From the IMG/VR virus record IMGVR_UViG_3300020200_000004: a DNA stretch of 64,000 nucleotides; one strand, written 5' to 3'. Made by a program: the position numbers and the translations under genes. Within the stretch, counting starts at the first letter, position 1. Each line of letters begins with the position of its first letter. This DNA is from a virus. Its lineage: Duplodnaviria > Heunggongvirae > Uroviricota > Caudoviricetes. The notes beneath the pieces were generated by a model, which saw only the letters and a list, made by a program, of their open reading frames with translations, did no database searches and was not told the origin of the DNA. Positions 3,733 to 48,391 of the stretch are shown here, in pieces.

Positions 3733-4017
3733 ATGAAAACCATTTGGCAAAAAATTGGCAGTCGAAGCGGCCCAAGAAGTGATGAATTACCAAAACAAGT
3801 TCCAGAAAAAGGGACTTGGGATGATGACCGTGGACAAATTATTGCTTACCACATTGATCAAGATGGTAATGTAACTATCGGTGACGTTTTATGGCGTCGT
3901 GGTCGATGGGAAAAGCAATATGATAATGTAACTAAAAGGGATGAAATCAATTTTTGCCTTTATGGTCCAGGCTATTCTGACTATGAGTGCACATGTGTCA
4001 AGGTAGAAGAATTTTAA
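3733..4017 (+). CDS. Hypothetical protein (94 aa)
   Basis: ORF with ATG start directly after motif copy 1. Confidence 0.4.
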   Translation: MKTIWQKIGSRSGPRSDELPKQVPEKGTWDDDRGQIIAYHIDQDGNVTIGDVLWRRGRWEKQYDNVTKRDEINFCLYGPGYSDYECTCVKVEEF

Positions 4018-4094
4018 TTGTACATTGCAATTCGCACTTCATCCGTAAAGTGACCTGTATTTTAGCTATTCAGGTGTAGAATTGCAAGAGAATT

Positions 4095-4108
4095 TTAATT
4101 GTACCAAG
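4095..4108 (+). promoter_or_regulatory. Conserved motif TTAATTGTACCAAG, copy 2; a degenerate copy ttaattgtacattg lies at 4015-4028
   Basis: Exact 14-mer in the 240-bp intergenic region upstream of the sigma-factor gene. Confidence 0.45.
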
Positions 4109-4154
4109 AAGGGCATGAACCTTTTGGTTTTTCTGTGTCTCTTGTAAAAGGAGA

Positions 4155-4182
4155 TTGACAATTTCAGCATTTTCTGTACAAT
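4155..4182 (+). promoter_or_regulatory. Host-type sigma-70 promoter (TTGACA-16-TACAAT) upstream of the sigma-factor gene
   Basis: ttgaca at 4155-4160, 16-nt spacer, tacaat at 4177-4182, about 75 nt upstream of ATG 4258. Confidence 0.5.
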
Positions 4183-4257
4183 GATAGATTGCAGGGAATG
4201 CGGGCTTTCTGGGATGAAGGTCAAACAACCACACCACAGTACGAAAGGGTATCTTAA

Positions 4258-5220
4258 ATGGGGATTCCTAGCATTTCACTTTCCAAGGAAGAATTGGAAC
4301 AAAATTGCCGCATTATGCGTAAGGGTAACACAATCTTACGCAAGTTCAGCGAAATAACTGGACTCAGCTTAAAAGCATTCCGCATCCGTCTATTCAAGGT
4401 TGGTCCAGATGTAAAGGAGAACTGGCCTGAATTGACCTTGGCACAACTGGAAGAATTGCAATTTGGTTGGAAGGCAATTCAGCATATCAAGGCAATTGAA
4501 TGGGATATGATTCAGTGTTTTTCTCGCCTTGTGCATCAGCTTGCTTCTCGTTTTTGCAAAGGTTATCAGCTACGCACCAGTGGCTCAATTATTTCGATTG
4601 CCGATTGCGTTCAAGAAGCTACTTTAGCTTTAATTGATGCAATTTTCACTTATGATAATGAAAAAATTAAGTTTATTACCTATGCATTTACGTGTATCAG
4701 GAATAAGCTGACTCAGATGGTTGCCAAGAATGCTCCTCTTAGCCCATTGACAGGGGAAGTGCCTGATTTGATGCGTCGTTATGAGATTCAGAAGGCAAGT
4801 TATAATCGTCATGTGACTGATGATGAGGTTTTCGCTGATCTTAAGTTGGACGAGCGGGAAATTAAGATTTTGACCAAGGCTAAAGCTAAGGTTTGGACTT
4901 CTAGGGAATGGCGTGACACCGATGAATCTCGTAGTTTTTCAAATGACTATACTGAGGCTCGTCATGGCATTGAACATGAGAAGCCTTTCCCGGCTGACTT
5001 TGAAATTGAAGAAGTAATTGGCCGGGCTGGTTTGGATGAGATTGAGAAGAAGATCATTGCTACAGCTATACGTCCTTATGCTGGGTGGCAGACTGATCTT
5101 GCTGCAAACAATATCAATCCAAACACTGGCAAGCCTTATACCCGTCAGCGTATGGGTCAGATTGTGCATGCTGCCTATGATAAGGTTCGCAAGGCATTGG
5201 CGTTAACTGAGAGTAGGTAA
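4258..5220 (+). CDS. Sigma-70-family RNA polymerase sigma factor (phage-encoded)
   Basis: 320 aa; region-2-like ADCVQEATLALIDAIFTYDNEKIKFITYAFTCIRNKL (FxTYA..IR); C-terminal region-4-like TRQRMGQIVHAAYDKVRKAL. Confidence 0.55.
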   Translation: MGIPSISLSKEELEQNCRIMRKGNTILRKFSEITGLSLKAFRIRLFKVGPDVKENWPELTLAQLEELQFGWKAIQHIKAIEWDMIQCFSRLVHQLASRFCKGYQLRTSGSIISIADCVQEATLALIDAIFTYDNEKIKFITYAFTCIRNKLTQMVAKNAPLSPLTGEVPDLMRRYEIQKASYNRHVTDDEVFADLKLDEREIKILTKAKAKVWTSREWRDTDESRSFSNDYTEARHGIEHEKPFPADFEIEEVIGRAGLDEIEKKIIATAIRPYAGWQTDLAANNINPNTGKPYTRQRMGQIVHAAYDKVRKALALTESR

Positions 5221-5260
5221 GAGTGTGGTGTTTTAATTTTACTAAGCTCTCTTATCTCCT

Positions 5261-5296
5261 GCCTGTAGGGATAGCCTTAACCCCTACAGGCTTTTA
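5261..5296 (+). terminator. Rho-independent terminator after the sigma-factor gene
   Basis: cctgtaggg-atagccttaa-ccctacagg stem followed by cttttaatt. Confidence 0.6.
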
Positions 5297-5326
5297 ATTA
5301 TCTTTGTAAGGGACAATGAAAGCGGA

Positions 5327-5362
5327 GTGCCGTTCTATTCTTACGGGAATAGAAGGAAGCAC
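5327..5362 (+). promoter_or_regulatory. Conserved 36-nt hairpin element, copy 1 (UUACGGG loop; 3' arm overlaps the SD)
   Basis: gtgccgttctattcttacgggaatagaaggaagcac; 32 of 36 nt identical to 17143-17178; stem ttctattc/gaatagaa; AAGGAAG SD for GTG 5365 lies in the 3' arm. Confidence 0.5.
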
Positions 5363-5364
5363 CT

Positions 5365-6093
5365 GTGACAAACAATCTAATTAAATATCTGAATAAGCGT
5401 ATTATCCCTTGGCGAAACGATTTTGGGTTGCCAAGGGATATTGCCCATAAAACCCATAGCCCCGTTAATATTTTAATATTAAATGCGGCGACTGAGGTTA
5501 ATAGGTATAATTCACCTTTTTGGGCAACCAAGGAACAATGGAATTCAGTAGGTTGTAAAGTTAGATATTGGGAACAGCCAACTTTAAGTTATTACAACAA
5601 AGACCAAGTAGATGGAAGCTTTGCTTGTGCTGCTGACCCTGTTATGTCTTTTAATGAAGTTGATAAGTTAATTGTTGATACCAAGGTTAATATAAAGTTT
5701 TCGCATAAGCTTATTGCTGAATATCATTATCCACCCAATGATTACATTTTGTTTCCTTATAAAATTCATTTTGATATGGGAGAAGGTAAGGAAGCTGGGT
5801 ATTACAATGCAATTTTCCATGAATTAGCCCATTTTACAGAACCTAAATTGGGTTGGGAATCTGAAAAGTATGGTGTGCCGGTTACTGAGTTACGTGCTGA
5901 AATAGCTGCTGACTTCATCACTTCTTATCTGCGTCTCCCACGATTGGCTTTTAATTTAAGAAGTAACCATCACAAGTGGATGGCAGATTGGGTCATGGCT
6001 TTGTCCTATGCTCCAAATTTGCTTGTTGCGGCTGCTGCTTCGGCTTACAATGCATTTAGATTGATTGTGAAGAAATATGCTAACGTATATTGA
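5365..6093 (+). CDS. ArdC-like protein (N-terminal ssDNA-binding-like region plus HExxH metallopeptidase-like motif)
   Basis: 242 aa, GTG start; NRYNSPFWATKEQWNSVGCKVR resembles the ArdC-N (DUF1738) motif; HELAH motif downstream. Confidence 0.4.
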   Translation: MTNNLIKYLNKRIIPWRNDFGLPRDIAHKTHSPVNILILNAATEVNRYNSPFWATKEQWNSVGCKVRYWEQPTLSYYNKDQVDGSFACAADPVMSFNEVDKLIVDTKVNIKFSHKLIAEYHYPPNDYILFPYKIHFDMGEGKEAGYYNAIFHELAHFTEPKLGWESEKYGVPVTELRAEIAADFITSYLRLPRLAFNLRSNHHKWMADWVMALSYAPNLLVAAAASAYNAFRLIVKKYANVY

Positions 6094-6502
6094 AGGCGAT
6101 CTGTTTAATTCAAAATGCGAATATGTTATATGCACCGTGAACTGTATTGGTGTAATGGGAAAAGGAATTGCTTTAGAATTTAAGAAGCGATACCCAGAAA
6201 TGTACTTGGCTTATAGAGAGGCTTGTGATAAAGGGGAAGTTAAAATAGGAAAGATGTGGGTTTGGAATAATATTATAAATTTTCCCACTAAAGATGATTG
6301 GCGTAACCCTTCCAAGCTAGAGTATATTAAAGCTGGGTTGTTGGACTTGAAAGTGGTTGTAAGAGAAAGAGGAATAAAAAGTCTTGGGATGCCAAAATTA
6401 GGTTGCTCCAATGGAAAATTAACGTGGGAAGATGTTAAAAAGCTAATTGAGATATTTCATTCAGTGGTTCCAGAATTGGATTTGCAAGTTTATTTAAAAT
6501 GA
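6077..6502 (+). CDS. Macro-domain protein, OARD1/TARG1-like (terminal ADP-ribose glycohydrolase family)
   Basis: EGDLF...CTVNCIGVMGKGIALEFKKRYP and LGMPKLGCSNGKLTWEDV parallel human OARD1 EGDLF...[21 protein letters not shown] and LSMPRIGCGLDRLQWENV. Confidence 0.7.
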   Translation: MLTYIEGDLFNSKCEYVICTVNCIGVMGKGIALEFKKRYPEMYLAYREACDKGEVKIGKMWVWNNIINFPTKDDWRNPSKLEYIKAGLLDLKVVVRERGIKSLGMPKLGCSNGKLTWEDVKKLIEIFHSVVPELDLQVYLK

Positions 6503-7140
6503 TTAATCCTTTTCGCATTACTTTTTCTGGAGTAGATGATACAATTACTCCAGAAGCACTGGCCAGTTTCCAAGTAGACTATCCTGAAATCGACTTGGAA
6601 TGGGGGGTTTTGCTGTCCAAGAAAAGAGCGGGAACAGCAAGATATCCTAGCCTTGACTGGTTAGAGAAGGTAGCAAGATATACTATTTTTTTCAAAGATA
6701 AGTTTAAATTGAATTTAGCTGGTCATCTTCAGGGGCAATGGTTGCAAGAGGTAATAAATGGCGAATTCATGTTTCCTAGTTTGTGGAAAAAGTTATTCAG
6801 AAGGATGCAGTTAAATTTTCATGGGCAGACATTAAATGATAATTTTCCCAATAATTTGAAACTTCGTCCTTTAAATTGGGATATGGATTGCAATATATTC
6901 CAAGTTGTTAATGGCGATGATAGATTGGTGCATAAAGCAAGGAAATTAGGTATAAATGTTTATCCTCTTTATGACTCATCTTGTGGGAATGGCAAAGTAC
7001 CTGACTTTTGGATTAAAGGGTATTTTGATGTAAATGGTTTTGCAGGTGGGTTGGGACCGGATAATATAAAAGAAGAATGGTTTAAGATAGTCGATGCTGC
7101 TGATGGAAAAGACTTCTGGATTGATTGTGAAACACAATAA
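6499..7140 (+). CDS. Hypothetical protein (213 aa)
   Basis: ORF in operon-like + strand run; no motif recognised. Confidence 0.4.
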   Translation: MINPFRITFSGVDDTITPEALASFQVDYPEIDLEWGVLLSKKRAGTARYPSLDWLEKVARYTIFFKDKFKLNLAGHLQGQWLQEVINGEFMFPSLWKKLFRRMQLNFHGQTLNDNFPNNLKLRPLNWDMDCNIFQVVNGDDRLVHKARKLGINVYPLYDSSCGNGKVPDFWIKGYFDVNGFAGGLGPDNIKEEWFKIVDAADGKDFWIDCETQ

Positions 7141-7194
7141 GAACGGATGAAAAGTTTGATTTAGAGAAATGCAAGAAAGTTATAGAAAACATAT

Positions 7195-8241
7195 ATGAAA
7201 TTCACACATTTGCTAGAAATTAAATTAGGGACTTGGTTTGGCATCAAGGTTATTTTAGACTTATGTTTGGTTGTTTTATGGATAACCTTGGCGATAATAA
7301 ATTTCAGTTCTATTGCAATTATATTATCTGTTTATGCATTTGTGCTTTTGCATGAATTTGGGCATGCGTTAGTTGGTAGATATATGGGGTTAAATTGTTA
7401 TCAGATAAAGATATATCCATTTGGAGGGTGCGCCTCATTTAGTAGCGAAATGGATGTGGGATATAAAGAATTTTGGATGGTTGCTGCTGGTCCGTTTGTA
7501 AACATAGTATTGGCATATATCTTTTGTGGTTTGTATTTTGTTTGCCCAAGTTATTTTTTATCTCAATGCACCACTATTAATTTGGCATTAGCTATATTTA
7601 ATTTAGTCCCTCTTTTTCCTATGGATGGCGGGCGTCTTGCAAGAATAGTATTTAATAAAATATTCAACAATACAATAAAAGCTACTCGTTTAGTCAACAT
7701 TGTGGGAATACCCCTGGCTTTGGCCCTATTTGTATTAGCTGTATATTCTTCCAATTTCATTTTGGGCATTATTGCTTTAATAATGCCTTTGGCTGGTACT
7801 TATGAACTTTCTGAGTTAAAACATAAGAAAAAGGCAAAACTTTATTTAGAGGCAGCTTATGCAGCAAAGAATCATGATTATGAAACTCAAGAAAGAATAT
7901 CTAATGAATTACACAGTGACGGGACAAGTGATATAATTAAGAATTATTTTTATATCGAACCCGATTACAAACTGGATTATATCATAGAAGTTTTGGAAAG
8001 CGATTTGGAAGGATATAAAAAGACAGGAGAATTCTTGAAATTTGCTATAGATTTTCACAAGTCTGTAAATGAAAAATTAAAAACATTGCATAAAATGATA
8101 AATGAAGATTTCGCTGACGGAGTATATTACAGAACTAGATTGTGCATTGACAATTTACAGCATAGAGCTTACAGAAAAGAGTTGGAAGAAATTCTTGATA
8201 AGCGTGGTTATATGACAAGATATGCACCTTTTATTAATTAA
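7195..8241 (+). CDS. Site-2 protease family (M50) membrane zinc metalloprotease
   Basis: HEFGHAL (HExxH) in a hydrophobic segment plus NLVPLFPMDGG (LDG-type motif); multiple predicted TM helices. Confidence 0.7.
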   Translation: MKFTHLLEIKLGTWFGIKVILDLCLVVLWITLAIINFSSIAIILSVYAFVLLHEFGHALVGRYMGLNCYQIKIYPFGGCASFSSEMDVGYKEFWMVAAGPFVNIVLAYIFCGLYFVCPSYFLSQCTTINLALAIFNLVPLFPMDGGRLARIVFNKIFNNTIKATRLVNIVGIPLALALFVLAVYSSNFILGIIALIMPLAGTYELSELKHKKKAKLYLEAAYAAKNHDYETQERISNELHSDGTSDIIKNYFYIEPDYKLDYIIEVLESDLEGYKKTGEFLKFAIDFHKSVNEKLKTLHKMINEDFADGVYYRTRLCIDNLQHRAYRKELEEILDKRGYMTRYAPFIN

Positions 8242-8821
8242 CATGAATAAAATTAAGTTAAATAAGGTAGTTGACAGGCAATTTGTGCAAAAGCTATTGT
8301 CTGTAGGCAGAGCCTTTGATGTAGACCAAGGCGGATACTATGATGCCAGATCGGGAGTGGTAAATTTTTGGTGCGGGCCGGATAATAAGCCTTCTTGTTG
8401 GCCTAACGACATTAAAATTGGTGGTCTTAAGCATCCAAGGGATTATGTGGGCGGGTTATATTGGGAAGTAGAAGGGGACGAATTCCATCTTTATTTGGAA
8501 GCTGATCCGTTTAGTTTGCTTGAATTTAGGAGCGGCGACAGATATAATAAGGATTGTCTGTCCAAAGATGATTCGGATTCTGTTTTTGATTGGTTAAAAG
8601 AGCAAGCTGATGGTTTAATACGTTTGGCTGGTGTATCTGTGGAATCAAAGGGTACTAAATGCCCTTTTTGTGATTATGTTTCGCCGCCTACTGAACTTTT
8701 GAATGATTTAATGGATCATATGGAAGGGCATGATGGTGTAAAGGTTACAGGTATATTTATGGGTAAGTCAATTGTCATTGAAACCAACCGTGGCGACTTG
8801 ACATTAGAGGAAAGTTGGTAA
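8222..8821 (+). CDS. Hypothetical protein (about 193 aa; probable start ATG 8243)
   Basis: ORF; CPFCDY zinc-ribbon-like pair near the C-terminus. Confidence 0.4.
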   Translation: MHLLLINMNKIKLNKVVDRQFVQKLLSVGRAFDVDQGGYYDARSGVVNFWCGPDNKPSCWPNDIKIGGLKHPRDYVGGLYWEVEGDEFHLYLEADPFSLLEFRSGDRYNKDCLSKDDSDSVFDWLKEQADGLIRLAGVSVESKGTKCPFCDYVSPPTELLNDLMDHMEGHDGVKVTGIFMGKSIVIETNRGDLTLEESW

Positions 8822-8837
8822 AATAAGAGGGTTTGAA

Positions 8838-9173
8838 ATGGCAGCACCTAAGGGTAATGTTTATGCACAAAAGGAACAATATGCGTATCCATCTTATCAT
8901 GGTTCGCATAAGAGCATGGTCATGGAAGAGGAAACAAAGCAGTTGAAGGATAAAACTTTAACTGTATTGAAGGATGAATTTGGTCTTTATGTCACAAAGG
9001 CCAAATATCTTGACAATGGTTTGGCTGATCCTTATCGTAATGCTTGGCGTGGATATAGAAAGGAGCTTTACAGCAAGCTTATTGCACCTGTCAAGCCTGA
9101 TGAAAAAGAAAAGTCTTTGGTAGAGATTGAAGAAGAGTTGCAAGCTAACCTGGAACAAATCCTTAAAGATTAG
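8838..9173 (+). CDS. Hypothetical protein (111 aa)
   Basis: ORF with GGGTTTG-type RBS context; no motif recognised. Confidence 0.4.
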   Translation: MAAPKGNVYAQKEQYAYPSYHGSHKSMVMEEETKQLKDKTLTVLKDEFGLYVTKAKYLDNGLADPYRNAWRGYRKELYSKLIAPVKPDEKEKSLVEIEEELQANLEQILKD

Positions 9174-9181
9174 AGGCTAAA

Positions 9182-9577
9182 ATGAATGATATTGTAAGCA
9201 AAATTGAGAAATCGCTTAAAGAATGTTGGGCGACACCTGGAAGCGTATCTTTTAACAGTCGGTGTAGAGATGATATTTTTAATATTAGCATTTCACCGGC
9301 AGTTAGGGAAACAGTAGGTGGGGCTGAGGATGGTTCTCAGTCATATCCTCCCTTTGCTATGGAATTGAATAAGTTTATTGTCCAGGTATTTGATAAATGT
9401 CCCAAAATTACTTTAACTGGTCAAAATGGGGATGACGTTCCTTATCTTCATTTTAGGGGTAAAATTGGTGGGCAACTGTGTAATGTTATTGTGTTAACTA
9501 GGCCGCATAATACACAGCAAGTTGCAGAAATTTTCTATGCATATGGGCCTAAAGCTGGGACAGTTGAGAACAAGTGA
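9182..9577 (+). CDS. Hypothetical protein (131 aa)
   Basis: ORF; no motif recognised. Confidence 0.4.
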   Translation: MNDIVSKIEKSLKECWATPGSVSFNSRCRDDIFNISISPAVRETVGGAEDGSQSYPPFAMELNKFIVQVFDKCPKITLTGQNGDDVPYLHFRGKIGGQLCNVIVLTRPHNTQQVAEIFYAYGPKAGTVENK

Positions 9578-9586
9578 AGGAATATC

Positions 9587-9641
9587 CCCCAATCATATGT
9601 GAAAAAGGCAAAAATCTAACTGTTTTCACATATGATTGGGG
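9587..9641 (+). promoter_or_regulatory. Perfect 19-bp inverted repeat hairpin (17-nt loop) between genes; the 3' arm overlaps the SD of the RNA-ligase gene
   Basis: ccccaatcatatgtgaaaa ...17 nt... ttttcacatatgattgggg; SD ggggagaagg begins inside the 3' arm; ATG at 9651. Confidence 0.55.
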
Positions 9642-9650
9642 AGAAGGTTT

Positions 9651-10280
9651 ATGAAGGAATATCCAAAAATCTTGGGGGTGAGTGAAGCTAATGACAAGCC
9701 ATGTGTTGCTTTCTACAAATATGACGGGTCTAATCTAAGATTTGAATGGCGATTTAAGCGTGGGTGGTATAAATTTGGGACACGGCATAGATTATTTAAT
9801 GAAACAGACCCAGAATATGGTGAATCTGTATCTATATTTATGGCAAAATATGCTGATGGTATAGAAAAAATTTTAAAGGATAAATTCAAAAAAATAGAAT
9901 CTGCAATCGCATATTGTGAATTTTTCGGGCCGTATAGTTTTGCAGGAATCCATGAAGAAGCTTTTCTAGGCGTTAATTCTAACGCTCCTAAAGATTTAAT
10001 CCTTTTTGACGTAAATGTACATAAAAAAGGATTTATTCCACCGTGGCAGTTTCTTGATTTTTTTAATCATTTGCATATAGCCAAAGTTGTTTATGAAGGA
10101 CATTTTACCGAAGATTTTGTACAAGATATAAGAAATAGTGTCTATAATGTAGAGGAAGGTGTTATAGTAAAAGGAGGCCAATCTGTACATGAAATTTGGA
10201 TGAGAAAAATTAAAACTTACGCATATCTTAAAAAACTTAAAGAAAAATTTAAAATTAATTGGAAAAATTATTGGGAATAA
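9651..10280 (+). CDS. ATP-dependent RNA ligase (Rnl2-like nucleotidyltransferase domain)
   Basis: Motif I KYDGSNLR (KxDG lysine-adenylate), motif IV EEGVIVKGG, motif V IWMRKIK; about 210 aa. Confidence 0.6.
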   Translation: MKEYPKILGVSEANDKPCVAFYKYDGSNLRFEWRFKRGWYKFGTRHRLFNETDPEYGESVSIFMAKYADGIEKILKDKFKKIESAIAYCEFFGPYSFAGIHEEAFLGVNSNAPKDLILFDVNVHKKGFIPPWQFLDFFNHLHIAKVVYEGHFTEDFVQDIRNSVYNVEEGVIVKGGQSVHEIWMRKIKTYAYLKKLKEKFKINWKNYWE

Positions 10281-10345
10281 TGTATAATGTTAAATTGTGC
10301 CAAAATATAATATAGATGAATTGAGAAAATTGTATGAGAGCGTGC

Positions 10346-10392
10346 ACTATAATAATTTATTATGCCTGTCCAGAGGCTATAGTATCTGGAAG
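10346..10392 (+). repeat. 47-bp intergenic repeat element A, copy 1 (second copy at 17041-17087)
   Basis: actataataatttattatgcctgtccagaggctatagtatctggaag, identical at both loci. Confidence 0.6.
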
Positions 10393-10459
10393 GTGTAACG
10401 AATTACAAGAAAGATTTGGTTTAGAGTGGAAAAAATATGTGTGATTAATCTATTAAGAC

Positions 10460-11512
10460 ATGAGTTATGAATACGATTTAGAGATAATTATTCCGGTAGC
10501 TAATAAACAGCCATATCTTCAAAGAATTATTGATTTTAAAGAATTTAATTTGCTTAACATTAATAAGTATAAAATTATAATTAAACTTTTAGTCGGTCCA
10601 GAAGAGATGCCGGAAGATATTTTTGAAAAATGGCCCTGTGATGTAGAAAAAATTGCTTTTGCATCAAATATTCATGTATCTAAGATATACAATTATTACC
10701 TTTCATTAAAAGACGGAGATTTTAAAAAGACCAGATGGTTTGCTAAGTTTGATGATGATTCTATCAGTGATATAGATGGGATAATATCAAATCTAGATGC
10801 AGATTTTGATTGCGAAAGAGACTATTATTTAGCCACCAATATATTTTATGATGATCATGAAGTGGAAATTGAACTTTTGGAAGAATTGGGGTTTTCACGT
10901 TGGTTTAAACATCATAAAAAAGTTCATCATGAGTGTGAAGGATCAATTCTATCAAACACTGCATTAAGGCGTATATTAAATAATGAACAAGCTAGAAATT
11001 TTTTGGAAAGAAGAAAAGATATAGAAAAAGGGTTTTGCGATATCGCTTTGGGGTGTGCTGCTAGAATATGTAAAATACATCTAACAAAAGCAGAATTCAT
11101 GACGCATATGCATTTTTTACATAAATTCACTTTGTTTGGTGGCCATCTTGCTCATATTCATTTTTTGTCTCATGATCGTCGTGGAGAATTATATAATATT
11201 TTTAAGAAAGCCATTAATAATAAAATATGTCCTGATATAATTGCCGAGGAAATATGTGATAAAAGCTATTTGTTTTCTAGGGATGATGGGACAATAATTT
11301 CTACAGTAAAATTATCAAGAAATGGCAAGGTGACTGGTAAAAAATTAAATGATAATGAAACTTTTTGGGATGTGGAAGATAGTAAACTAAGATTTTTAAA
11401 TATAGAAGGGAAACCCAGCACTGTTTTTGATATGTATAATTTCAATAAAATGTCTGGACAATTCTTATTTGACAAAAAAATAACTCATATGTTGCAAAGA
11501 GTATATGAATAA
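10460..11512 (+). CDS. Putative glycosyltransferase (GT2-like)
   Basis: 350 aa; LEIIIPVANKQ N-terminus and FAKFDDDS (DxD-like) are weak GT-A fold hints. Confidence 0.3.
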   Translation: MSYEYDLEIIIPVANKQPYLQRIIDFKEFNLLNINKYKIIIKLLVGPEEMPEDIFEKWPCDVEKIAFASNIHVSKIYNYYLSLKDGDFKKTRWFAKFDDDSISDIDGIISNLDADFDCERDYYLATNIFYDDHEVEIELLEELGFSRWFKHHKKVHHECEGSILSNTALRRILNNEQARNFLERRKDIEKGFCDIALGCAARICKIHLTKAEFMTHMHFLHKFTLFGGHLAHIHFLSHDRRGELYNIFKKAINNKICPDIIAEEICDKSYLFSRDDGTIISTVKLSRNGKVTGKKLNDNETFWDVEDSKLRFLNIEGKPSTVFDMYNFNKMSGQFLFDKKITHMLQRVYE

Positions 11513-12278
11513 ACCATTGATGATGTTGTCCCTGCCGAATACTGGAACTGATTGGTTGGTTAAATGTTTATTAAAGACTAATAAGTATAATTATTCTAGG
11601 GAATTTTTCAACCCAATGGTGAACGAAAAGTATTGTGATATTTTATCGAAATGTTTTGGGTGTGAATATGCTTCTCTTGCGCATTTGATTGCTAAAGAGC
11701 CTATTTTGTCTTTGGCAACAAGTGTTTTAAATGATAGTTGGAATAAAGAAACATTTGATTTTACTAAAGAGACATTTTCTGCTTTTAAAATTGATTTCTT
11801 TTTTAAAAAATTTACTTGTTTTGTTTTATTCAGAAAAATAGAACAAAGTATGCCGTCGAATGTCTTTGAAAGGATATATCCATTAAGAAGCTGGTATGAT
11901 GCTATGTTTTTCTCTTTAATAGCCAATAAAGCATCTCTTGAGCCAGATATAAGAAAAATGGTTGAAGTTACTGAAAAATATGGTTTGATAGAGAGACAAA
12001 TAGCTGCTTTTGTGATATATTACAGCAAGTTACTTAAAGAAGCTAAAGATCGTCAACTTATTGTTTTGGAATATGATAAATTGCTTTCCTTTTCAGCGGT
12101 AAAATTAGTTGATTATTTGACGATTCCATTTATTTGCAATCCTACATTAACTGCATCTGAAGTTTTGGAAACTAGAAAACCACGAATGGATAATTTTTGC
12201 TCATTAGGGAAAAAAGCGGTTAAATTTAAAGAACTAATCACATCTTTTGCACCAGAAGAATACAAGGCTTTATGTTAA
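11505..12278 (+). CDS. Hypothetical protein, possibly sulfotransferase-like
   Basis: 257 aa; SLPNTGTDWL resembles the PAPS-binding PKSGTTW motif. Confidence 0.3.
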   Translation: MNKPLMMLSLPNTGTDWLVKCLLKTNKYNYSREFFNPMVNEKYCDILSKCFGCEYASLAHLIAKEPILSLATSVLNDSWNKETFDFTKETFSAFKIDFFFKKFTCFVLFRKIEQSMPSNVFERIYPLRSWYDAMFFSLIANKASLEPDIRKMVEVTEKYGLIERQIAAFVIYYSKLLKEAKDRQLIVLEYDKLLSFSAVKLVDYLTIPFICNPTLTASEVLETRKPRMDNFCSLGKKAVKFKELITSFAPEEYKALC

Positions 12279-12796
12279 AGGTTATGCCTAGATATCAAAC
12301 TGACAGACCTGATATAAGCGGGTGGTTCCTTGATTATGAAGGACGTTTTTATCATGATTTAGTCTCTAAAATTGAAAATGGTATTGTTGTCGAAATTGGT
12401 AATTGGCATGGGCTTTCATTATCATATGTTGTGGAAGTTTGTGCCCAGCAAAACAACAAAATTTATGCAGTAGACAAATTTCATTGCACTGAATTTCTTA
12501 AAAATTTTAAAAATTGGCCTCAAAATACAGTAGAATTAATTACAATGTCTTCGGCGGAAGCTTCACTTAAGTTTGATGACGCTTCTATAGACCTAGTTTT
12601 CATAGACGCAAATCACGAATATAATTCAGTGCATGCTGATATAAATGCTTGGATGCCTAAAATAAAAAAAGAAGGAATTATTTCAGGCCATGATTATTGT
12701 TTAGCTTGGCCTGGCGTTATAAAGGTTGTTGATTCTTTGCTTCCTAATAGAAAAATTCAAGATAGAATTTGGTATTGTAAGCTGGAGGGAATATGA
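12272..12796 (+). CDS. Class I SAM-dependent methyltransferase (Methyltransf_24 / macrocin-O-MT-like)
   Basis: VVEIGNWHG (motif I) and LVFIDANHEYNSV. Confidence 0.55.
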   Translation: MLKVMPRYQTDRPDISGWFLDYEGRFYHDLVSKIENGIVVEIGNWHGLSLSYVVEVCAQQNNKIYAVDKFHCTEFLKNFKNWPQNTVELITMSSAEASLKFDDASIDLVFIDANHEYNSVHADINAWMPKIKKEGIISGHDYCLAWPGVIKVVDSLLPNRKIQDRIWYCKLEGI

Positions 12797-12797
12797 A

Positions 12798-13994
12798 ATG
12801 GGCATGTATACAGAATTGGTTTTTGCTTCTGAACTTAAAAAAGACATCCCAGATGAAACTGTAAATCTTTTGGATTTAATGGTTCGTGGGGAAGGCAAAT
12901 TATTTGAAGAAACATTTTCAACTACGCTTCCAGATCATGAATTTGTTATCACTGGAAGCATCAAACAAAAGAGTGCTGAAGATGTTAAGGAATTGGTAGA
13001 TTTGACAGAAAAGTTCCTGCAAGAACAATCCATCTATAAAGGCAAAGCTGTTAAAGTTTCTTTTGAATGGCAAAGAATTAACAGACAGTTTGATCCTTCC
13101 CAAGACTGTCCGCAATTCATGAATTTGGAGAACGTTAAGGAAGATGACCTTATTTTTGGTGAAGATGTACAAAATGCCGTAAACATTGGTCTTTTTGCTC
13201 CACTTGAGAATGCTGATGCTTGCCGTCGTTATAAAGTACCGCTTAAGCGTGGTATTTTGCTGCATGGTCCATACGGCACAGGTAAAACTCTTTGTGCCAA
13301 TGTTACAGCTTTGAAAGCAAGAAAGCACGGTTTTACTTTCATTTATCTTGATAGTGTTGAAGACCTCAAGAAAGGTTTACAATTTGCGGCTCAACATGCT
13401 CCTGCTGTACTATTTGCAGAAGATATTGATCGTGTCACAAATGGGTCAAGAACTAAAGACCTTGACGCCATTCTTAACACTTTGGACGGCGTTGATACTA
13501 AGAATTGTGAAATCATTACAGTTTTTACCAGCAACCACATTGAAGATATTAATCCGGCTGCTTTGAGAATGGGCAGATTGGATACTTTAGTGGAAGTTAC
13601 TCCTCCTGATGCCGTTGCTGCTGTGCGTTTAGTTAAACTTTATGGGCGTGGCTTGCTTTCCCATAATATTAATTTTGATAAAGTGGGAGTAGCTTTGTCT
13701 GGTAATATTCCTGCATATATTAGGGAAACTGTAGAAAGGGCTAAGATTGCAGCTATTTCCAGGCTAAAAGGGCAAGACATTAATGGACATGTATTGGAGC
13801 AGGATTTGTTAAATGCTGCTTCTTCTATGAAGGTGCATGCTGAATTGCTTAAAGATAAGAAGAAGATTGTTAATCCCAACGCTGAGGTTTTGGTTAAGAT
13901 TCCTTCTCAGCACCAATTGGCTCAGACATTGCTTGGTGAACTTCACAAGAATGGGCAAGAGGTATTAGCAGCCTCCTCTGATGATTATGATTAG
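12798..13994 (+). CDS. AAA+ ATPase
   Basis: Walker A LLHGPYGTGKT, Walker B VLFAEDID, sensor region; start ATG 12798 with GGAGGGA RBS (the ORF track's upstream start at 12726 overlaps the previous gene). Confidence 0.7.
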   Translation: MGMYTELVFASELKKDIPDETVNLLDLMVRGEGKLFEETFSTTLPDHEFVITGSIKQKSAEDVKELVDLTEKFLQEQSIYKGKAVKVSFEWQRINRQFDPSQDCPQFMNLENVKEDDLIFGEDVQNAVNIGLFAPLENADACRRYKVPLKRGILLHGPYGTGKTLCANVTALKARKHGFTFIYLDSVEDLKKGLQFAAQHAPAVLFAEDIDRVTNGSRTKDLDAILNTLDGVDTKNCEIITVFTSNHIEDINPAALRMGRLDTLVEVTPPDAVAAVRLVKLYGRGLLSHNINFDKVGVALSGNIPAYIRETVERAKIAAISRLKGQDINGHVLEQDLLNAASSMKVHAELLKDKKKIVNPNAEVLVKIPSQHQLAQTLLGELHKNGQEVLAASSDDYD

Positions 13995-14059
13995 TGCCAA
14001 TTCCTTCATCAGAAGATGAATTGAAGCACATTAGTCTGTTCTGTCACCTTCCTTGGTGG

Positions 14060-14096
14060 GGCTGGATTATGGGAAACTGTAATCCAGCCTTTTTTC
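14060..14096 (+). terminator. Rho-independent terminator after the AAA+ gene
   Basis: ggctggatta-tgggaaactgt-aatccagcc followed by tttttt. Confidence 0.65.
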
Positions 14097-14131
14097 TTGA
14101 CAGCTAAAGGAAAAAGTGTTATAGAATTATT

Positions 14132-14416
14132 ATGTGGACTTCTGAAAAAAATGGTTGGGTAATTGCTTTTAAAGAACCATATCCAGAGACTTGTAATTAT
14201 GAAGAAATACAAGCAATTTTTAAGAAATTATTTTTAAAATTGCGACATATTTGCCCAAAAGGAGTAAAACTTAAGTCAGTGCAGTCATTAGTTGGCACTT
14301 TATTTGTCGCTGGTTCAAATGAAGCTTGCCTTGAACTACAAAAAAGGTTAAAATCCACTAATCTGGCTCATATGGAAGAAAACAGGAGTAAAGTGGAGAT
14401 TAGTTATGGAAAATGA
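14132..14416 (+). CDS. Hypothetical protein (94 aa)
   Basis: ORF after terminator. Confidence 0.35.
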   Translation: MWTSEKNGWVIAFKEPYPETCNYEEIQAIFKKLFLKLRHICPKGVKLKSVQSLVGTLFVAGSNEACLELQKRLKSTNLAHMEENRSKVEISYGK

Positions 14417-14544
14417 AAAATGCAAATTCATTGTGCCAACTTTCTGTGAATGGCAAATGTGTACTGATCCTTCTGCTTGTCCTTTCATAGATAAGCATGG
14501 GAATTGTAATAGACCCAAAGACGTAAAACAATGTCCAATAGAGG

Positions 14545-14802
14545 ATGAAAATGCCGTACATCAAGCAAAAAGATCGACCGAAGTTTGATAGTGCATTAAA
14601 AGATTTCCCCGTTCCTGATACAGAAGGCGAACTTAATTATATTTTAACTAAGTTATGCCATCAGTATATCCAAAAAAAGGGAAAAACATATTCTACTTAT
14701 AATCAAGTCGTTGGCGTATTAGACTGCGCCAAATTAGAGATTTATAGACGACACGTTGGAATTTATGAAGATCAGAAAATTATTGAAAATGGTGACGTGT
14801 GA
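14545..14802 (+). CDS. Hypothetical protein (85 aa)
   Basis: ORF. Confidence 0.3.
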   Translation: MKMPYIKQKDRPKFDSALKDFPVPDTEGELNYILTKLCHQYIQKKGKTYSTYNQVVGVLDCAKLEIYRRHVGIYEDQKIIENGDV

Positions 14803-15065
14803 ATGTAATTTATTCAAACGAACCTTTTAAAAATCACTCTCCTTCTATCTTCCTTGCGGGGCCAACAGTTAGGCGGCAGGATTTAAAATCGTGGCGTCCT
14901 AAAGCTATTGAGTTCCTTATTAAAGAATTAGAATTCAAGGGCGCTATTTATGTCCCTGAGTGGAATAAAAACTTACAGCCAGTTGATTATTTAACACAAG
15001 TTGAATGGGAACATTTAGGACTTGAAAACGCTACTTATATTAGTCGTACATTTTCAGGAGTGTAG
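14799..15065 (+). CDS. Nucleoside 2-deoxyribosyltransferase-like, apparently truncated (88 aa)
   Basis: SIFLAGPTVRR resembles the NDT-family YLAGP motif; the ORF ends where a minus-strand ORF begins. Confidence 0.3.
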   Translation: MNVIYSNEPFKNHSPSIFLAGPTVRRQDLKSWRPKAIEFLIKELEFKGAIYVPEWNKNLQPVDYLTQVEWEHLGLENATYISRTFSGV

Positions 15066-15340
15066 CTTAACCTTGAATTGATTCTATCTATTGAGGGACT
15101 GTAAGGATTTGCTTTGCCATTGTTTGTTTCTGTTGGAATGATTAAAGGCAGGCCAGTTATAGCACAAAGCCCATTTTGTTTATCCCATAAATTGCAAAGA
15201 AAATTAGTTGAAATGTTAAATTCTATATTTTTTCTTTTTGCTCTCCTTTTTGCGATTCGATTTAGTTCCACTAAACGACCTTTTATGCTTAAATAATAGT
15301 TGTGCCTGTATTCTTGAGAATAGCTTTTATTGGCTTTCAT
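15035..15340 (-). CDS. Hypothetical minus-strand protein with degenerate HNH/EndoVII-like motif (possible endonuclease remnant)
   Basis: 101 aa; NGLCAITGLP...SIDRI is loosely like the CxxC...DHDH nuclease pattern; one of few minus-strand ORFs. Confidence 0.3.
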   Translation of the reverse strand: MKANKSYSQEYRHNYYLSIKGRLVELNRIAKRRAKRKNIEFNISTNFLCNLWDKQNGLCAITGLPLIIPTETNNGKANPYSPSIDRINSRLSYTPENVRLI

Positions 15341-15501
15341 CCAATTTTGGTTAAGTATTTTAAGATGTTCTTTATGTTTTTGTCTATATTCTTTTAAATA
15401 TTTGCTCCTACAATCAATACACCAAGATTTATTTGTTGTGTTTTTGTGGCATCTAGAACATAATTTTATAACCTATAAAGAGTAACTTGATAGGATTTTT
15501 T

Positions 15502-16104
15502 ATGGCTAGATTCGTTGTGGCTGATTGGCATTTAGGGGAAAATAGATTTGAATTAATGAATCGACCATTTAGTTCTCAACAACAAATGGTTGATTATTTG
15601 ATTAAAAAACATAATCAAATAGTAGCCAAAGACGATGAAGTATTTATGCTGGGGGATGTTTGCTATAAAGAAACCCCAGAATATTTAAAATATGTTGCTG
15701 ACTTCAATGGAAAGAAAATTTTAGTCCGTGGTAATCATGACCGTGGTATTACAGATGAGGAATTCAAAAACTACTTTGAAGATATTATCCCTGAAGGAAA
15801 AGGGATAGAAATCAAGATCGAAGACATACCCTGTTATTTCACTCATTATCCTACACAGGGCAGGCAAGGATGTTTTAATGTAGTTGGCCACATTCATGCT
15901 GCTTGGAAATATCAATTGAATATGTTGAACTGCGGTGTGGATGTGCATCATTTCTCGCCAGTTAATCTATCCACTATTCCAATTCACTTCAAAGCAATCC
16001 ATGAGTATTATGATGAAGATATATGGGCAGCTTATTCCCCTCTCAATTCCTGCTATGTTGGCATAAGGGGGAAGAAGGGTACTTACTTTAAGAACCCAAG
16101 TTGA
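15502..16104 (+). CDS. Calcineurin-like metallophosphoesterase
   Basis: VVADWHLG, GDVCYKE, GNHDRG metallophosphatase motifs. Confidence 0.65.
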   Translation: MARFVVADWHLGENRFELMNRPFSSQQQMVDYLIKKHNQIVAKDDEVFMLGDVCYKETPEYLKYVADFNGKKILVRGNHDRGITDEEFKNYFEDIIPEGKGIEIKIEDIPCYFTHYPTQGRQGCFNVVGHIHAAWKYQLNMLNCGVDVHHFSPVNLSTIPIHFKAIHEYYDEDIWAAYSPLNSCYVGIRGKKGTYFKNPS

Positions 16105-16169
16105 TTTTTTGAAATTTTGAAATATAATACAGGAAGCACTCTTTCTAACAACTCAATGGAGTATCCTGT

Positions 16170-16589
16170 ATGCAAATGAAAGTCAAAAAGAAATTCGTCT
16201 TGACTGCGCATGTAAGGGAACGATATCTTGAAAGAATCAAAGAAATTCGCAAATATAAACCCCTCAGTGAATGCTTTGAAGAAGATTGCTATGAATGCAA
16301 AAAGCTAAAAAGAACGTTAGAATTAGAAGTTTATAACAATAAAAGGCAGCTTGACGAAGAGATTAAGGAAAGACTGAATCGAGCAACTTCTGAAAAGAGT
16401 TATTTGAACAATTCCTCTTTTATGTACAGTATTTATAAAAAGTATGGATACGATAGAAGGTTTGAATTGCTTTTAGACAAAGATGTGGTGTTTATAGTAA
16501 TTTTAGATGAAGCTAACGTAGTAGTTACTTGTATGAATTCTAGCACTACTATATTAGCTAATTATGCTTGTAAAAATAGGGTGATTTAA
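16170..16589 (+). CDS. Hypothetical protein (139 aa)
   Basis: ORF. Confidence 0.35.
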   Translation: MQMKVKKKFVLTAHVRERYLERIKEIRKYKPLSECFEEDCYECKKLKRTLELEVYNNKRQLDEEIKERLNRATSEKSYLNNSSFMYSIYKKYGYDRRFELLLDKDVVFIVILDEANVVVTCMNSSTTILANYACKNRVI

Positions 16590-16834
16590 TGAAGTGCCAA
16601 TGTCGATCTAAAGACTTTTTCCATGAATTGCAATGTCAAGGTGTTCAAAAGCATTCTGGGAAACATTGGGCTTATTGTCCGGCTGGTAATTTAATTTTGT
16701 GGCTCAATAAAAGGGAAGTTAAAAAGATAACTCCAATTACAATTATGCTTGAAGACATACCACCTGGCAGTAAAAGTTATATTTCTCCAGATAAGATGTT
16801 TGAAAAGAGATGGACAGTAATAAGGAGAAAGTAA
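16589..16834 (+). CDS. Hypothetical protein (81 aa)
   Basis: ORF. Confidence 0.3.
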   Translation: MKCQCRSKDFFHELQCQGVQKHSGKHWAYCPAGNLILWLNKREVKKITPITIMLEDIPPGSKSYISPDKMFEKRWTVIRRK

Positions 16835-17047
16835 ATGGGCGTAAGCTATAGTTCCAACCTTTGTGTTGGTGTTAAGATGAGTAAGGTATTTGAGATAAAG
16901 AATAAAACTGTACTTAAAACTAAATACAATCCTGACACTGGTGTTCCATATGAAAGCAAACTTATAGAAAAGGAGCTTTTGTTTTTTGGAAAAGTAATAG
17001 AAGAACCTGTTAAGTATTATCCTGGCGAATGGGCACTGCAACTATAA
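16835..17047 (+). CDS. Hypothetical protein (70 aa)
   Basis: ORF; its 3' end overlaps repeat element A copy 2. Confidence 0.3.
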   Translation: MGVSYSSNLCVGVKMSKVFEIKNKTVLKTKYNPDTGVPYESKLIEKELLFFGKVIEEPVKYYPGEWALQL

Positions 17048-17087
17048 TAATTTATTATGCCTGTCCAGAGGCTATAGTATCTGGAAG
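17041..17087 (+). repeat. 47-bp intergenic repeat element A, copy 2
   Basis: Identical to 10346-10392. Confidence 0.6.
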
Positions 17088-17142
17088 AAGTATGGAATGA
17101 ACCTAAATATAAGCAACAGAGATTAAATTAAGTGTAAACTTA

Positions 17143-17178
17143 GTGTCGTTTTATTCTTACGGGAATGGAAGGATGCAC
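17143..17178 (+). promoter_or_regulatory. Conserved 36-nt hairpin element, copy 2 (spans the start codon of the IDO-like gene)
   Basis: gtgtcgttttattcttacgggaatggaaggatgcac; 32 of 36 nt identical to 5327-5362. Confidence 0.5.
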
Positions 17179-18283
17179 AGCAACAGAGAGCAAACTAATG
17201 CGAAGTCACTTTTGGGATGTAGTGGTAAGGGGATTTTTACCCATTCGTGATCCTGTATTAAAGGGAGATTTATTTGAAAAAATACCCCTTACAGGATCAA
17301 GGAATGAAATATTTAATTATTTAAATCAAAATAAAGTTGATTTAACAGCATTTGTAAACAATGAAGAAGATTGTGAACGGCTCTTTAGAATGTATTCCTA
17401 TGCTGCTAGTGCCTTTATTCATTCCCAAAGTGAACCGCCTACAAACGTTCTACCAAAAGAAATAGCCGTACCTTTAGTTAAGTTCTCTCAGATACTAGAC
17501 AGAAAGCCAATTCTATCATATGGTAGCTATTGTTTAAATAATTGGCAAAGAATAGATGTTACCAAACCTGTAGAACTAGGTAATATTCGTTTATTGACGC
17601 ATTTTTGCCCTATTCCATATAATCGGGATGAAGCTTGGTTTATTCTGGTGCATGTGGATATAGAAAATTCAGCAGCTTTGGGTATTTTTGCTTGTCATTC
17701 GATGCTTTTGCAAGACCCCTTAACACCTGAATTTGCTTTCTTTGTGCTTAATCAGATAAAAACCAGTCTGATTAACATGAATAAAGCCTTGAATAGAATG
17801 CCAGAAGAATGTAGCCCAGAGCATTATTTTTTATTCGTTAGACCTTATATATTCAGCTTTGAAAATGTTGTTTATGAAGATTGTTTTCATGGTAAACCGC
17901 AAACTTTTAGGGGTGAAACAGGGGCACAAAGTTCTATAATACCTGCTTTTCTTGCAGCATTGGAGATAAAGCATAAAGATTCAATGTTGACTCATCATTT
18001 GCAGGAAATGCGGGATTATATGCCTAAAGACCATCGCATTTTCCTGAATAATTTAGAAAATAGTTCTGTGCATCTAAGGGAAGTGGCTAAGAAAGACAGC
18101 AAGTTAAAGCCTTTATATAATGAATGTTTAATGCAACTTATTGATTTTAGAGAAAAACATTTTGAATATGCTATTAACTATATTGCTAATAAAGTAGAGA
18201 ATCCTAAAGGTACAGGAGGAACACCTTATGTGCCTTGGCTTAAGCAGCTGAAAGAAGAGACTAAGCAGCAAATTTTGGAGTAA
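17165..18283 (+). CDS. Indoleamine 2,3-dioxygenase (IDO)-family heme dioxygenase-like protein
   Basis: GETGAQSS, LQEMRDYMPKDHRIFL and KGTGGTPYVPWLKQLK parallel human IDO1 GGSAGQSS, LQDMRRYMPPAHRNFL and KGTGGTDLMNFLKTVR; a His is present where IDO has its proximal His. Confidence 0.65.
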   Translation: MEGCTATESKLMRSHFWDVVVRGFLPIRDPVLKGDLFEKIPLTGSRNEIFNYLNQNKVDLTAFVNNEEDCERLFRMYSYAASAFIHSQSEPPTNVLPKEIAVPLVKFSQILDRKPILSYGSYCLNNWQRIDVTKPVELGNIRLLTHFCPIPYNRDEAWFILVHVDIENSAALGIFACHSMLLQDPLTPEFAFFVLNQIKTSLINMNKALNRMPEECSPEHYFLFVRPYIFSFENVVYEDCFHGKPQTFRGETGAQSSIIPAFLAALEIKHKDSMLTHHLQEMRDYMPKDHRIFLNNLENSSVHLREVAKKDSKLKPLYNECLMQLIDFREKHFEYAINYIANKVENPKGTGGTPYVPWLKQLKEETKQQILE

Positions 18284-18285
18284 AC

Positions 18286-18420
18286 ATGAAAGATTATTTA
18301 AGGACAATCAAGCTTGGCATCGGAGAAGGTGAACCCGGCAAGCAAGCATGTTGGATGAGTGCCCTTTCTGCGCATTTGGGCGGGGAATGGACAGATAGTT
18401 TGGAATGTGTTGATCCTTAA
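18286..18420 (+). pseudogene. Truncated member of a local paralog family (44 aa: MKDYLRTIKLGIGEGEPGKQACWMSALSAHLGGEWTDSLECVDP*)
   Basis: N-terminal homology to 47403.. and 48392..48943; stops where the paralogs continue. Confidence 0.45.
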
Positions 18421-44534: not shown

Positions 44535-44670
44535 TCCAAGCAGCAACATTCCTGATCGTTTAGCTGAAATTTATAGTAAAGATGATCCTGTGCCGCCTCA
44601 AGTATGGGAAGCAGTTAAAGAAGTCCGAAAAGGAATGGGCATGATGTGGCATTACGCAGGAGATTAATTT

Positions 44671-45186
44671 ATGTCATTGATTTTAGCTAAGTCTGCTCCT
44701 AAACTGGAGGTTAAAACTTTTGGTATTGTGCCAATTCCTTCATTAGAAGATGAATTGAAGCACCCCAACATATGGATTCGTACCAGAGATTCTAAAGAAG
44801 TAGATTTTGAAATAGATTTTATTGATTTTAATCAAATATTGGATTGTTATTTTGGATTTAAACCATCGGCAGACATATTTTCCATTGACGAAGAGGAGAT
44901 GGAATTTTGGTTCGGTAGTAATAATTGGGCAGAAAATTGCATTCTATTCAAATTCAAAACCAATGACGCTAATGTATTTGCCATTGATGAAACAGATTTC
45001 AAAGTAATGGCACAATATGTTTATACCAATACAGATTTAATAGCAAATGACGTAAGATTAAATTATTTGGGAAGGCATAAAAAGAAGTCAGAAAAACTAA
45101 AAAGAGGGCAAGATTTATTTGATTGGTTGCTTTCTTTGAAATTGGTCGATGGTTTTAATACAAAAAACAAAAGGCTTGCAAAATAA
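44671..45186 (+). CDS. Hypothetical protein (171 aa)
   Basis: First ORF after the array. Confidence 0.4.
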   Translation: MSLILAKSAPKLEVKTFGIVPIPSLEDELKHPNIWIRTRDSKEVDFEIDFIDFNQILDCYFGFKPSADIFSIDEEEMEFWFGSNNWAENCILFKFKTNDANVFAIDETDFKVMAQYVYTNTDLIANDVRLNYLGRHKKKSEKLKRGQDLFDWLLSLKLVDGFNTKNKRLAK

Positions 45187-47401: not shown

Positions 47402-47402
47402 C

Positions 47403-48390: not shown

Positions 48391-48391
48391 A

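Follow-up and report, generated by a model that had tools for sequence, protein, structure and literature searches.

Operator hairpins over the start region of a cistron are found in the replicase genes of MS2 and Qβ (coat protein), in phage Mu mom (opened by Com) and in T4 gene 43. REP/MITE-like palindromes include the Rickettsia RPEs, which are inserted in frame. In T4-type phages, PeSLs combine a terminator stem-loop with a conserved sigma70-type promoter, and have been proposed to act as gene-cassette movers (PMC2839356, PMC4122927). Racr elements are solitary repeat units near anti-defense genes, defined by their close match (about 90% identity or more) to a known CRISPR repeat (PMC10651486). 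Cas12i processes its own pre-crRNA, contacting mainly the backbone of a stem-loop that is closed by G:C next to the guide (PMC8190297).

The phage contig studied here (Caudoviricetes; IMG/VR record IMGVR_UViG_3300020200_000004) carries a 36-nt hairpin that is new as a family, yet is a familiar kind of element. The window, i.e. the whole 64,000-nt stretch that was analyzed, was the subject of an earlier note reporting two hairpin copies that overlap translation starts. Its GC content is 35%, and its genes lie on the + strand (one TnpB-like gene, 480–1706, is listed as –). They comprise a sigma factor, ArdC-like, Macro-domain, M50 peptidase, IDO-like, T4-like rIIB, endonuclease VII and two TnpB-like genes. 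Identical contigs are present in several JGI, Logan and ENA assemblies, and the JGI sample series presumably represents Lake Tanganyika metagenomes. The TnpB-like (OrfB_IS605/Cas12f-TNB) genes at 480–1706 (–) and 24870–26042 (+) share the phage with a Cas12i-like effector. A tandem 66-nt repeat (335–400 and 408–473) is found on the 3' side of the gene at 480–1706. Three 80-nt stretches at gene starts (18280–18359, 47397–47476 and 48386–48465) are 73–79% similar (…ATGAAAGATTATTTAAG…GCATGTTGGATGAG), and look like a small paralogous gene family with a common N-terminus.

A dispersed family of 36-nt sense-strand hairpins

The coordinates of both window copies (A1 and A2) and their 32/36 identity, as first described, were confirmed on the + strand (Table 1). 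In 100 shuffles, zero matches to the 36-nt hairpin were obtained at 3 mismatches. Predicted RNA folding energies were −14.1 kcal/mol for A1 and −13.9 kcal/mol for A2, with z about −5 against shuffled controls. The copies differ at four positions (C4U, C9U, A25G and A32U). The first three each convert a Watson-Crick pair to G·U, as in the earlier description that stem substitutions keep pairing possible through G-U, and A32U is a change within a two-base bulge. Because C4U, C9U and A25G make G·U pairs, the reverse strand of A2 does not fold (−0.8 kcal/mol, z +0.3). The loop had been drawn as the 7-nt UUACGGG; prediction instead gave a UACG tetraloop with U·G and C-G as closing pairs.

Further copies were sought with a covariance model built from A1 and A2, then rebuilt from six copies. 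Over the window A1 and A2 were the sole A-type members, so that the description of the hairpin as present twice holds inside the window but not beyond it, where the family reaches at least nine 36-nt hairpins (A1–A9) of eight distinct sequences. Seven further copies, six of which are placed in Table 1, lie past the window on the next 8.8 kb of the contig (locus L023), and another is in a second contig. The earlier note had called for this search and had named an absence of further copies as one outcome that would count against its reading; because additional copies exist, that objection falls away. The A copies scored 45–62 bits, and the next-best matches 15 bits or less.

Table 1. Coordinates of the hairpins and of the features around them (window positions unless another locus is named).
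Feature	Position	Strand	Remarks
Hairpin A1 (GTGCCGTTCTATTCTTACGGGAATAGAAGGAAGCAC)	5327–5362	+	covariance model score 60.3 bits; stem probability 0.98–1.0 in context
Hairpin A2 (GTGTCGTTTTATTCTTACGGGAATGGAAGGATGCAC)	17143–17178	+	covariance model score 57.6 bits
Hairpin A3	L023 12131	+	covariance model
Hairpin A4	L023 12493	+	covariance model; identical to A3
Hairpin A8	L023 12894	+	covariance model
Hairpin A9	L023 13726	+	covariance model
Hairpin A5	L023 13806	+	covariance model
Hairpin A6	L023 15594	+	covariance model
Hairpin A7	L048:10537–10572 (IMGVR_UViG_3300020200_000014)		AUG begins 72-aa ORF; lone copy in contig
Hairpin B1 (GTGCCAATTCCTTCATCAGAAGATGAATTGAAGCAC)	13994–14029	+	found by first covariance model
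Hairpin B2	44728–44763	+	35/36 identical to B1
Hairpin C1 (GTGTGAACCATATCGAAACAGATACGGTCGAAGCAC), candidate	27364–27399	+	motif scan; inside 345-aa ORF
Terminator-like hairpin (10-bp GC-rich stem, then TTTT)	5261–5295	+	after sigma-factor gene, 31 nt before A1
ArdC-like anti-restriction gene (ArdcN + zincin MPTase)	5365–6093	+	GTG start 2 nt past A1
58-nt segment with TATAAT and small hairpin	17041–17098	+	45 nt before A2
25-codon upstream ORF	17173–17250	+	begins at conserved AUG of A2
IDO-like gene	17198–18283	+	start per public gene calls, 20 nt after A2
Cas12i-like type V effector, 1020 aa	39302–42364	+	adjoins array
CRISPR array, 26 repeats of 37 nt	42714–44534	+	repeat GTTGCAATAGATTAAAACAATGTGCTGTTATTGGCAC
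Motif TTTAATTGTACCAAG	3716, 4099, 28182, 32191, 33622, 35831, 48944, 56902, 58673, 61359, 62514, 63900; 3 beyond window	+	

The A copies are spread over ~75 kb of the phage genome and are 75–97% alike in pairwise comparison. Start-to-start distances are 11,816 nt in the window and 362, 401, 832, 80 and 1,788 nt beyond it; this irregular repeat-spacer periodicity led us to reject a CRISPR array. Alignment of 7 copies together with 50 nt on the 5' side and 40 nt on the 3' side showed that similarity spans exactly bases 1–36, with unrelated flanks. The copies are intergenic and begin 1–106 nt past the preceding same-strand gene, except that A8 follows a divergent gene. Six are packed into 3.5 kb of small ORFans (34–128-aa ORFs without Pfam hits). 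The second contig, from IMG/VR and the same lake as the main phage, is 85 kb long. It has no detectable protein similarity to the main phage genome and zero TTGTACCAA motifs, and its A7 suggests that a hairpin-plus-gene cassette was passed between co-occurring phages.

Searches outside these contigs returned little. Exact patterns of the 21-nt A core gave chance matches only in IMG/VR, in GTDB species genomes (one genome per species) and in JGI metagenome contigs. Broader A patterns in IMG/VR yielded one real extra locus, on two contigs from the same lake. Searching GenBank phages by blastn, with the element or with the sigma-ArdC region, gave nothing or chance matches in tail-fiber genes. A protein-based search of IMG/VR found no ArdC or IDO relatives, and the nearest ArdC homologue has 38% identity. 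A GHKL-ATPase-domain (HATPase_c_3) protein, encoded at 35881–37920, was taken to be the product of a conserved core gene. The hairpin is absent from the loci of three relatives with 42–48% identity to this protein (L052, L054 and L050), which have a different motif in common. In current databases the hairpin family appears confined to Lake-Tanganyika phages.

Rfam 15 gave only two tRNA hits in the window and nothing relevant near A1 (E up to 10), and no relevant match over the copy cluster (E up to 1). One of the two, at 46078–46151, is a tRNA with anticodon UUA, which would read the UAA stop; the ORFs look intact with the standard code. The second tRNA-like match (58024–58094) comes from Rfam only.

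The A fold is closed by a stem of 4–5 bp, GUGC(C)/G..GCAC. A bulge and a small internal mismatch follow, then a 9-bp upper stem rich in A/U and G·U that is topped by the tetraloop. Across 14 pairs in nine copies (eight distinct), 99.1% of cells are standard pairs; registers slid by 1–3 columns gave 38–68% pairing. Both sides change at three pairs: 3–34 (G-C/A-U), 9–26 (C-G/U-A) and 13–22 (U-A/C-G), the last two running through U·G. U15·G20 is constant across the A copies. Covariation values, which rest on the 8 distinct sequences, were matched by 1/500 column shuffles. In a 116-nt context the inner stem formed with a probability of 0.82–1.0 in 9/9 copies, and the closing stem was weak in A2, A4 and A8 (0.02–0.35). 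The closing stems of A8 and A9 are GUAY/GUAC. Together with the related B and C hairpins described below, 12/12 members are carried by the sense strand. Read from copies that are few and related, this pattern is good evidence for an RNA fold under selection, or at least for one that is specific to the sense strand.

Positions relative to translation starts

Within the hairpin, AAGGA at positions 27–31 is invariant and AUG at 31–33 is present in 8/9 copies. SD-like GGGA, GGGG or GGAG occupies positions 19–23, in the loop and 3' arm, 7–8 nt before the AUG. Because the copies are 75–97% alike, the near-invariance of AAGGAUG (27–33) may partly reflect recent spread, not selection. A1 is the exception, with AAG at 31–33 where the family has AUG. 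Its 3' arm holds AAGGAAG, ideally spaced 7 nt before the GTG at 5365 that also starts the ArdC-like gene in independent gene calls, which bears out the proposal that this arm contains the SD of that gene.

The second copy had been described as spanning the ATG of the IDO-like gene. An ATG at 17165 does lie inside the 3' arm of A2, in frame, as an alternative start; recorded calls, however, begin at 17198, and no gene starting at 17165 is on record. In A2 the family's AUG lies at 17173 and opens a short ORF that overlaps the start of the IDO-like gene at 17198 in another reading frame. Elsewhere the AUG at 31–33 is itself the start of a called gene, of 94 aa for A5 and 72 aa for A7. The A3 and A6 AUGs begin ORFs of 10 and 8 codons, respectively, each with its stop 2 nt before the main ATG, a classic geometry for translational coupling. 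A6 itself begins 1 nt past a stop codon. The A8 AUG begins a 32-codon ORF that overlaps the next start. A9 opens a 4-codon ORF only, as does A4 one of 6 codons; A4 lies between convergent genes, without a downstream + gene. Distances from element to main start range from −5 to +57 nt. The two genes originally paired through the hairpin are indeed unrelated, but they belong to a larger set, since the dispersed family precedes at least 7 unrelated cistrons.

Because SD-like sequences and an AUG lie inside the hairpin, its simplest and likeliest reading is a structured translation-initiation module. We give an even chance to the fuller proposal, drawn from sequence and predicted folding, that the 36-nt hairpin is a portable structured translation-initiation operator common to many early-type genes. 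Two features are those of such operators: a sense-strand RNA helix kept by compensatory change, and the SD and/or initiation codon of the cistron within that helix (the AUG in A5 and A7, the SD in A1). The suggestion of a shared cis-regulatory RNA is to this extent upheld, in that a discrete, covarying sense-strand structure at or near gene starts encloses an SD-like sequence and a start codon.

Such an operator would work by hiding the ribosome-binding site and start codon in the folded hairpin, the downstream cistron being translated once the hairpin opens or is bound. Translation might then follow one of three routes: the downstream cistron could be read directly from the AUG of the element, initiation could occur at a GTG 2 nt downstream of it, or termination-reinitiation could proceed via a short leader ORF. 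Unrelated, mostly small early-type or anti-defense genes would be placed under one post-transcriptional control, exerted by an RNA-binding protein or by an intrinsic low-stability switch. That translation is affected at all, and that some trans-acting factor exists, we infer; none of the annotated genes could be recognized as a candidate RNA-binding regulator. If this reading is correct, one 36-nt RNA module brings many unrelated phage genes, the anti-restriction and IDO-like genes among them, under common translational control and moves along with gene cassettes. The result would be an RNA regulon of compact form and a regulatory part that is portable and ready for use. Rfam lacks the motif, whose source is a lineage of large freshwater phages that has hardly been sampled.

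Signals for transcription were also inspected around the window copies. The 58-nt segment upstream of A2 has a 93%-identical copy at 10346–10403, both lie upstream of unrelated genes, and it is possible that the segment at 17041–17098 is the promoter of the A2/IDO transcript. A promoter consensus scan of 4000–19000 found 78 promoter-like sites versus 59.0 ± 6.7 in shuffles. We considered whether the hairpin marks the 5' end of transcripts and rejected this, because the −10-like hexamers 0–9 nt from the element lack consistent spacing. The hairpins are not intrinsic terminators either, as they are followed by CCTGTG, AGCAAC and the like, with no U-tract; the only terminator-like site overlapping an A hairpin is a 14-nt stem at the start of A1, without a T-run.

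A separate motif, TTTAATTGTACCAAG, has 15 copies within some 75 kb; all are on the + strand, and many stand 5–10 nt before an ATG without SD. Relatives carry TTAACTGTACCAACTGG as its counterpart. From its placement, TTTAATTGTACCAAG is likely a clade-specific promoter giving near-leaderless mRNAs, perhaps read by the phage sigma factor (4258–5220).

Related hairpins, the phage CRISPR system and other readings

Two further hairpin types share the outline of family A. B1 overlaps the end of an AAA-ATPase gene at its stop codon, and an intrinsic terminator follows 28 nt later. B2 is located 57 nt into a called 171-aa ORF and 194 nt past the CRISPR array. C1, whose inner helix is of a third type, is the weakest candidate member. 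As in A1, all three are 36 nt long with 5' GUGY and 3' GAAGCAC, and their inner helices differ from it. GAAGCAC occurs 7 times on the + strand and 0 times on the – strand, with GTGY exactly 36 nt upstream in 4/7 cases. This spaced pattern was thus seen 4 times versus 0.017 expected from dinucleotide shuffles. The B pattern had no match in IMG/VR. In CRISPR repeat families, length and termini are typically constant and the compensated helix between them varies. The B and C members lie at a stop codon or inside ORFs, without AUG at 31–33, so that a role in starting translation does not by itself account for the whole family. A strong hairpin at 6524–6559 (−14.8 kcal/mol), 25 nt into ORF 6499–7140, has the AAGCAC tail of the family but lacks GTGY at its 5' end; it is perhaps a degenerate relative.

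The phage also encodes its own CRISPR system. No Pfam family matched its effector, for which about 38 distant relatives turned up among 1.84 billion representative proteins, the nearest at 40% identity; the profile built from these relatives matches Cas12i2 over nearly the full length (E 9e-44). The array repeat ends in a 3' hairpin (GUGCUGUUAUUGGCAC) whose closing stem, GUGC/GCAC, is also found in the hairpins, and the bases after the closing stem match as well (GUGCYGUU). The Cas12i1 repeat reads …GUGCCCAUCGUUGGCAC, to which we give no evidential weight here. A solitary degenerate array repeat (GGATTAAAACAATGTGCTG-CTGGCAC, loop 3 nt shorter) is intergenic at 48112–48136, 3.6 kb from the array and 11 nt upstream of the ATG at 48148. 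Searches for a tracrRNA-like anti-repeat returned nothing convincing, the array-repeat pattern gave one chance hit in IMG/VR, and at L055, the locus of the closest Cas12i-like homologue, the sequence does not extend far enough to show an array. Several side observations concern the array. Its spacers are GC-richer than the phage, and a 10-nt match to the repeat end (TTATTGGCAC) occurs at 48523–48532. Right past the last degenerate repeat, 44 codons (44536–44667) read as a protein C-terminus (…DDPVPPQVWEAVKEVRKGMGMMWHYAGD*), as if the array abuts or overwrote a gene's start.

These similarities raise the prospect that the hairpins mimic crRNA handles and are bound or processed by the Cas12i-like effector, with the mRNA being repressed, stabilized or used for guide loading. 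We regard this as unlikely. In its favor are the four closing pairs and next bases (GUGCYGUU) that the array repeat has in common with A, B and C, the Cas12i2 match of the effector family, and the ability of Cas12i to process pre-crRNA and to recognize a simple G:C-closed stem-loop (PMC8190297). The solitary repeat at 48112–48136 likewise stands 11 nt before a start codon, and three divergent subfamilies have retained 36 nt and their termini (4 versus 0.017 expected). The match, however, covers just 4–8 nt and was noticed post hoc, and the GUAY/GUAC closing stems of A8 and A9 depart from it. The elements are 36 nt compared to the 16–17 nt of a Cas12i handle, and the 5' flank of the repeat (AAAACAAU), which sits in the Cas12i processing pocket, is not conserved upstream of them, leaving only GUGC/GCAC (+YGUU) in common. 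Nothing elsewhere in the 75 kb gave a meaningful match to the sequences downstream of the elements. As candidate guides with a target in the genome they were rejected, their matches being not above chance.

The link between the hairpins and the CRISPR repeat is a putative one. That the A, B and C hairpins and the 48112 repeat are all ligands of the effector via the GUGC/GCAC stem seems quite unlikely from the sequence comparison. If it were true, the phage CRISPR nuclease would double as a post-transcriptional regulator of a host-takeover regulon that represses, stabilizes or processes mRNAs. Alternatively, the effector would take guides straight from phage mRNAs. The closing-stem match raises the question of whether phage-borne Cas effectors bind their own mRNAs.

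A role in RNA processing or stability, modeled on T7 RNase III sites, would make the hairpin an endoribonuclease site or a protective mRNA-end hairpin. The hairpin is stable and discrete, and its placement is intercistronic: A6 begins 1 nt past a stop, B1 overlaps another, and A4 occupies a 3' region with convergent genes on either side. T7-type RNase III sites have about two helical turns of dsRNA and an internal loop, compared to 14 bp in total here, which is short for RNase III. With no U-tract there is no intrinsic terminator, and the invariant AAGGAUG and the uORF-to-ATG coupling geometry are left unexplained. A processing site seems a decidedly unlikely explanation of the family.

We give a similarly low probability to the element acting as DNA, shuffling gene cassettes in the manner of a mobile mini-palindrome or a hotspot of recombination, with an incidental RNA fold. 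Sharp 36-nt borders between unrelated flanks would fit, as would the lone copy in an unrelated 85-kb phage contig of the same lake, and the identical A3 and A4 stand on either side of one 78-aa ORF, as direct repeats left by a cassette insertion would. Clustering among ORFans resembles that of T4 PeSLs (PMC4122927), and 36 nt corresponds to 12 codons, with B2 and C1 within ORFs. Against it, 12/12 members are on the sense strand, and recombination does not need the G·U-type and both-side changes that keep the fold on that strand alone. No Y1/RAYT-type transposase was seen among the genes, only two TnpB-like ones. Both a processing or stability role and cassette shuffling are conceivable and compatible with the translation-start reading.

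Very unlikely, finally, is that the hairpins are RNA anti-CRISPRs, solitary units that mimic the repeats of a host or rival phage and soak up Cas proteins from anti-defense leaders: 36 nt is a typical CRISPR-repeat length, the termini are conserved around a variable compensated inner hairpin, A1 precedes the ArdC and Macro-domain genes, the 44 nt that separate A9 and A5 recall a mini-array, and racr-acr co-transcription is documented (PMC10651486), but no array or other A core was found in GTDB species genomes, JGI contigs or IMG/VR outside Lake-Tanganyika phage contigs, A9 and A5 are only about 75% alike, the element AUG serves as a gene start, and nine copies across mRNA leaders depart from the SRUs known to date. 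The A-core genome scans lend no support to a Racr-type decoy of host repeats.

Comparison with known systems

REP/MITE elements resemble the hairpin in being short palindromes with sharp borders and many copies, sometimes in ORFs in multiples of 3 nt. REPs are oriented either way and rely on a RAYT transposase, whereas here one strand is used, RNA-level structure is kept and no RAYT was seen. The Cas12i (type V-I) repeat is likewise a simple stem-loop, G:C-closed and directly 5' of the following sequence (PMC8190297). Its handle measures 16–17 nt and follows a conserved single-stranded 5' flank, whereas the elements, 36 nt long, lack that flank and lie outside arrays.

Racr (PMC10651486) and viral crRNA-like RNAs (bioRxiv 10.1101/2024.10.29.618823) are also repeat-sized solitary intergenic phage hairpins near anti-defense genes, some of which are co-transcribed with the downstream gene. 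The A copies are intergenic, B2 and C1 are intragenic, and promoter-like hexamers lie upstream at inconsistent offsets. In contrast to Racr, the hairpin has a much higher copy number, doubles as a translation start and has no matching CRISPR repeat in the A-core scans.

PeSLs, short conserved regulatory motifs, are similar in that they recur among the ORFans of large myovirus genomes, within plastic regions. The phage here has the T4-like genes rIIB and endonuclease VII, and 6 copies lie between variable ORFans in 3.5 kb. Only the 36-nt hairpin is conserved, however, with an SD and AUG in place of a U-tract. We rejected assignment as a PeSL cassette because the promoter beside the hairpin is not conserved in the 7-copy flanks; there is also no U-run after the stem.

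The operators of MS2/Qβ, Mu mom and T4 gene 43 are small (20–40 nt) sense-strand hairpins at the 5' end of a cistron that include the SD or initiation codon, as is the case here. Those operators are single-copy and have a known protein partner, whereas here the hairpin is repeated before many genes and would often act through a short coupled leader ORF.
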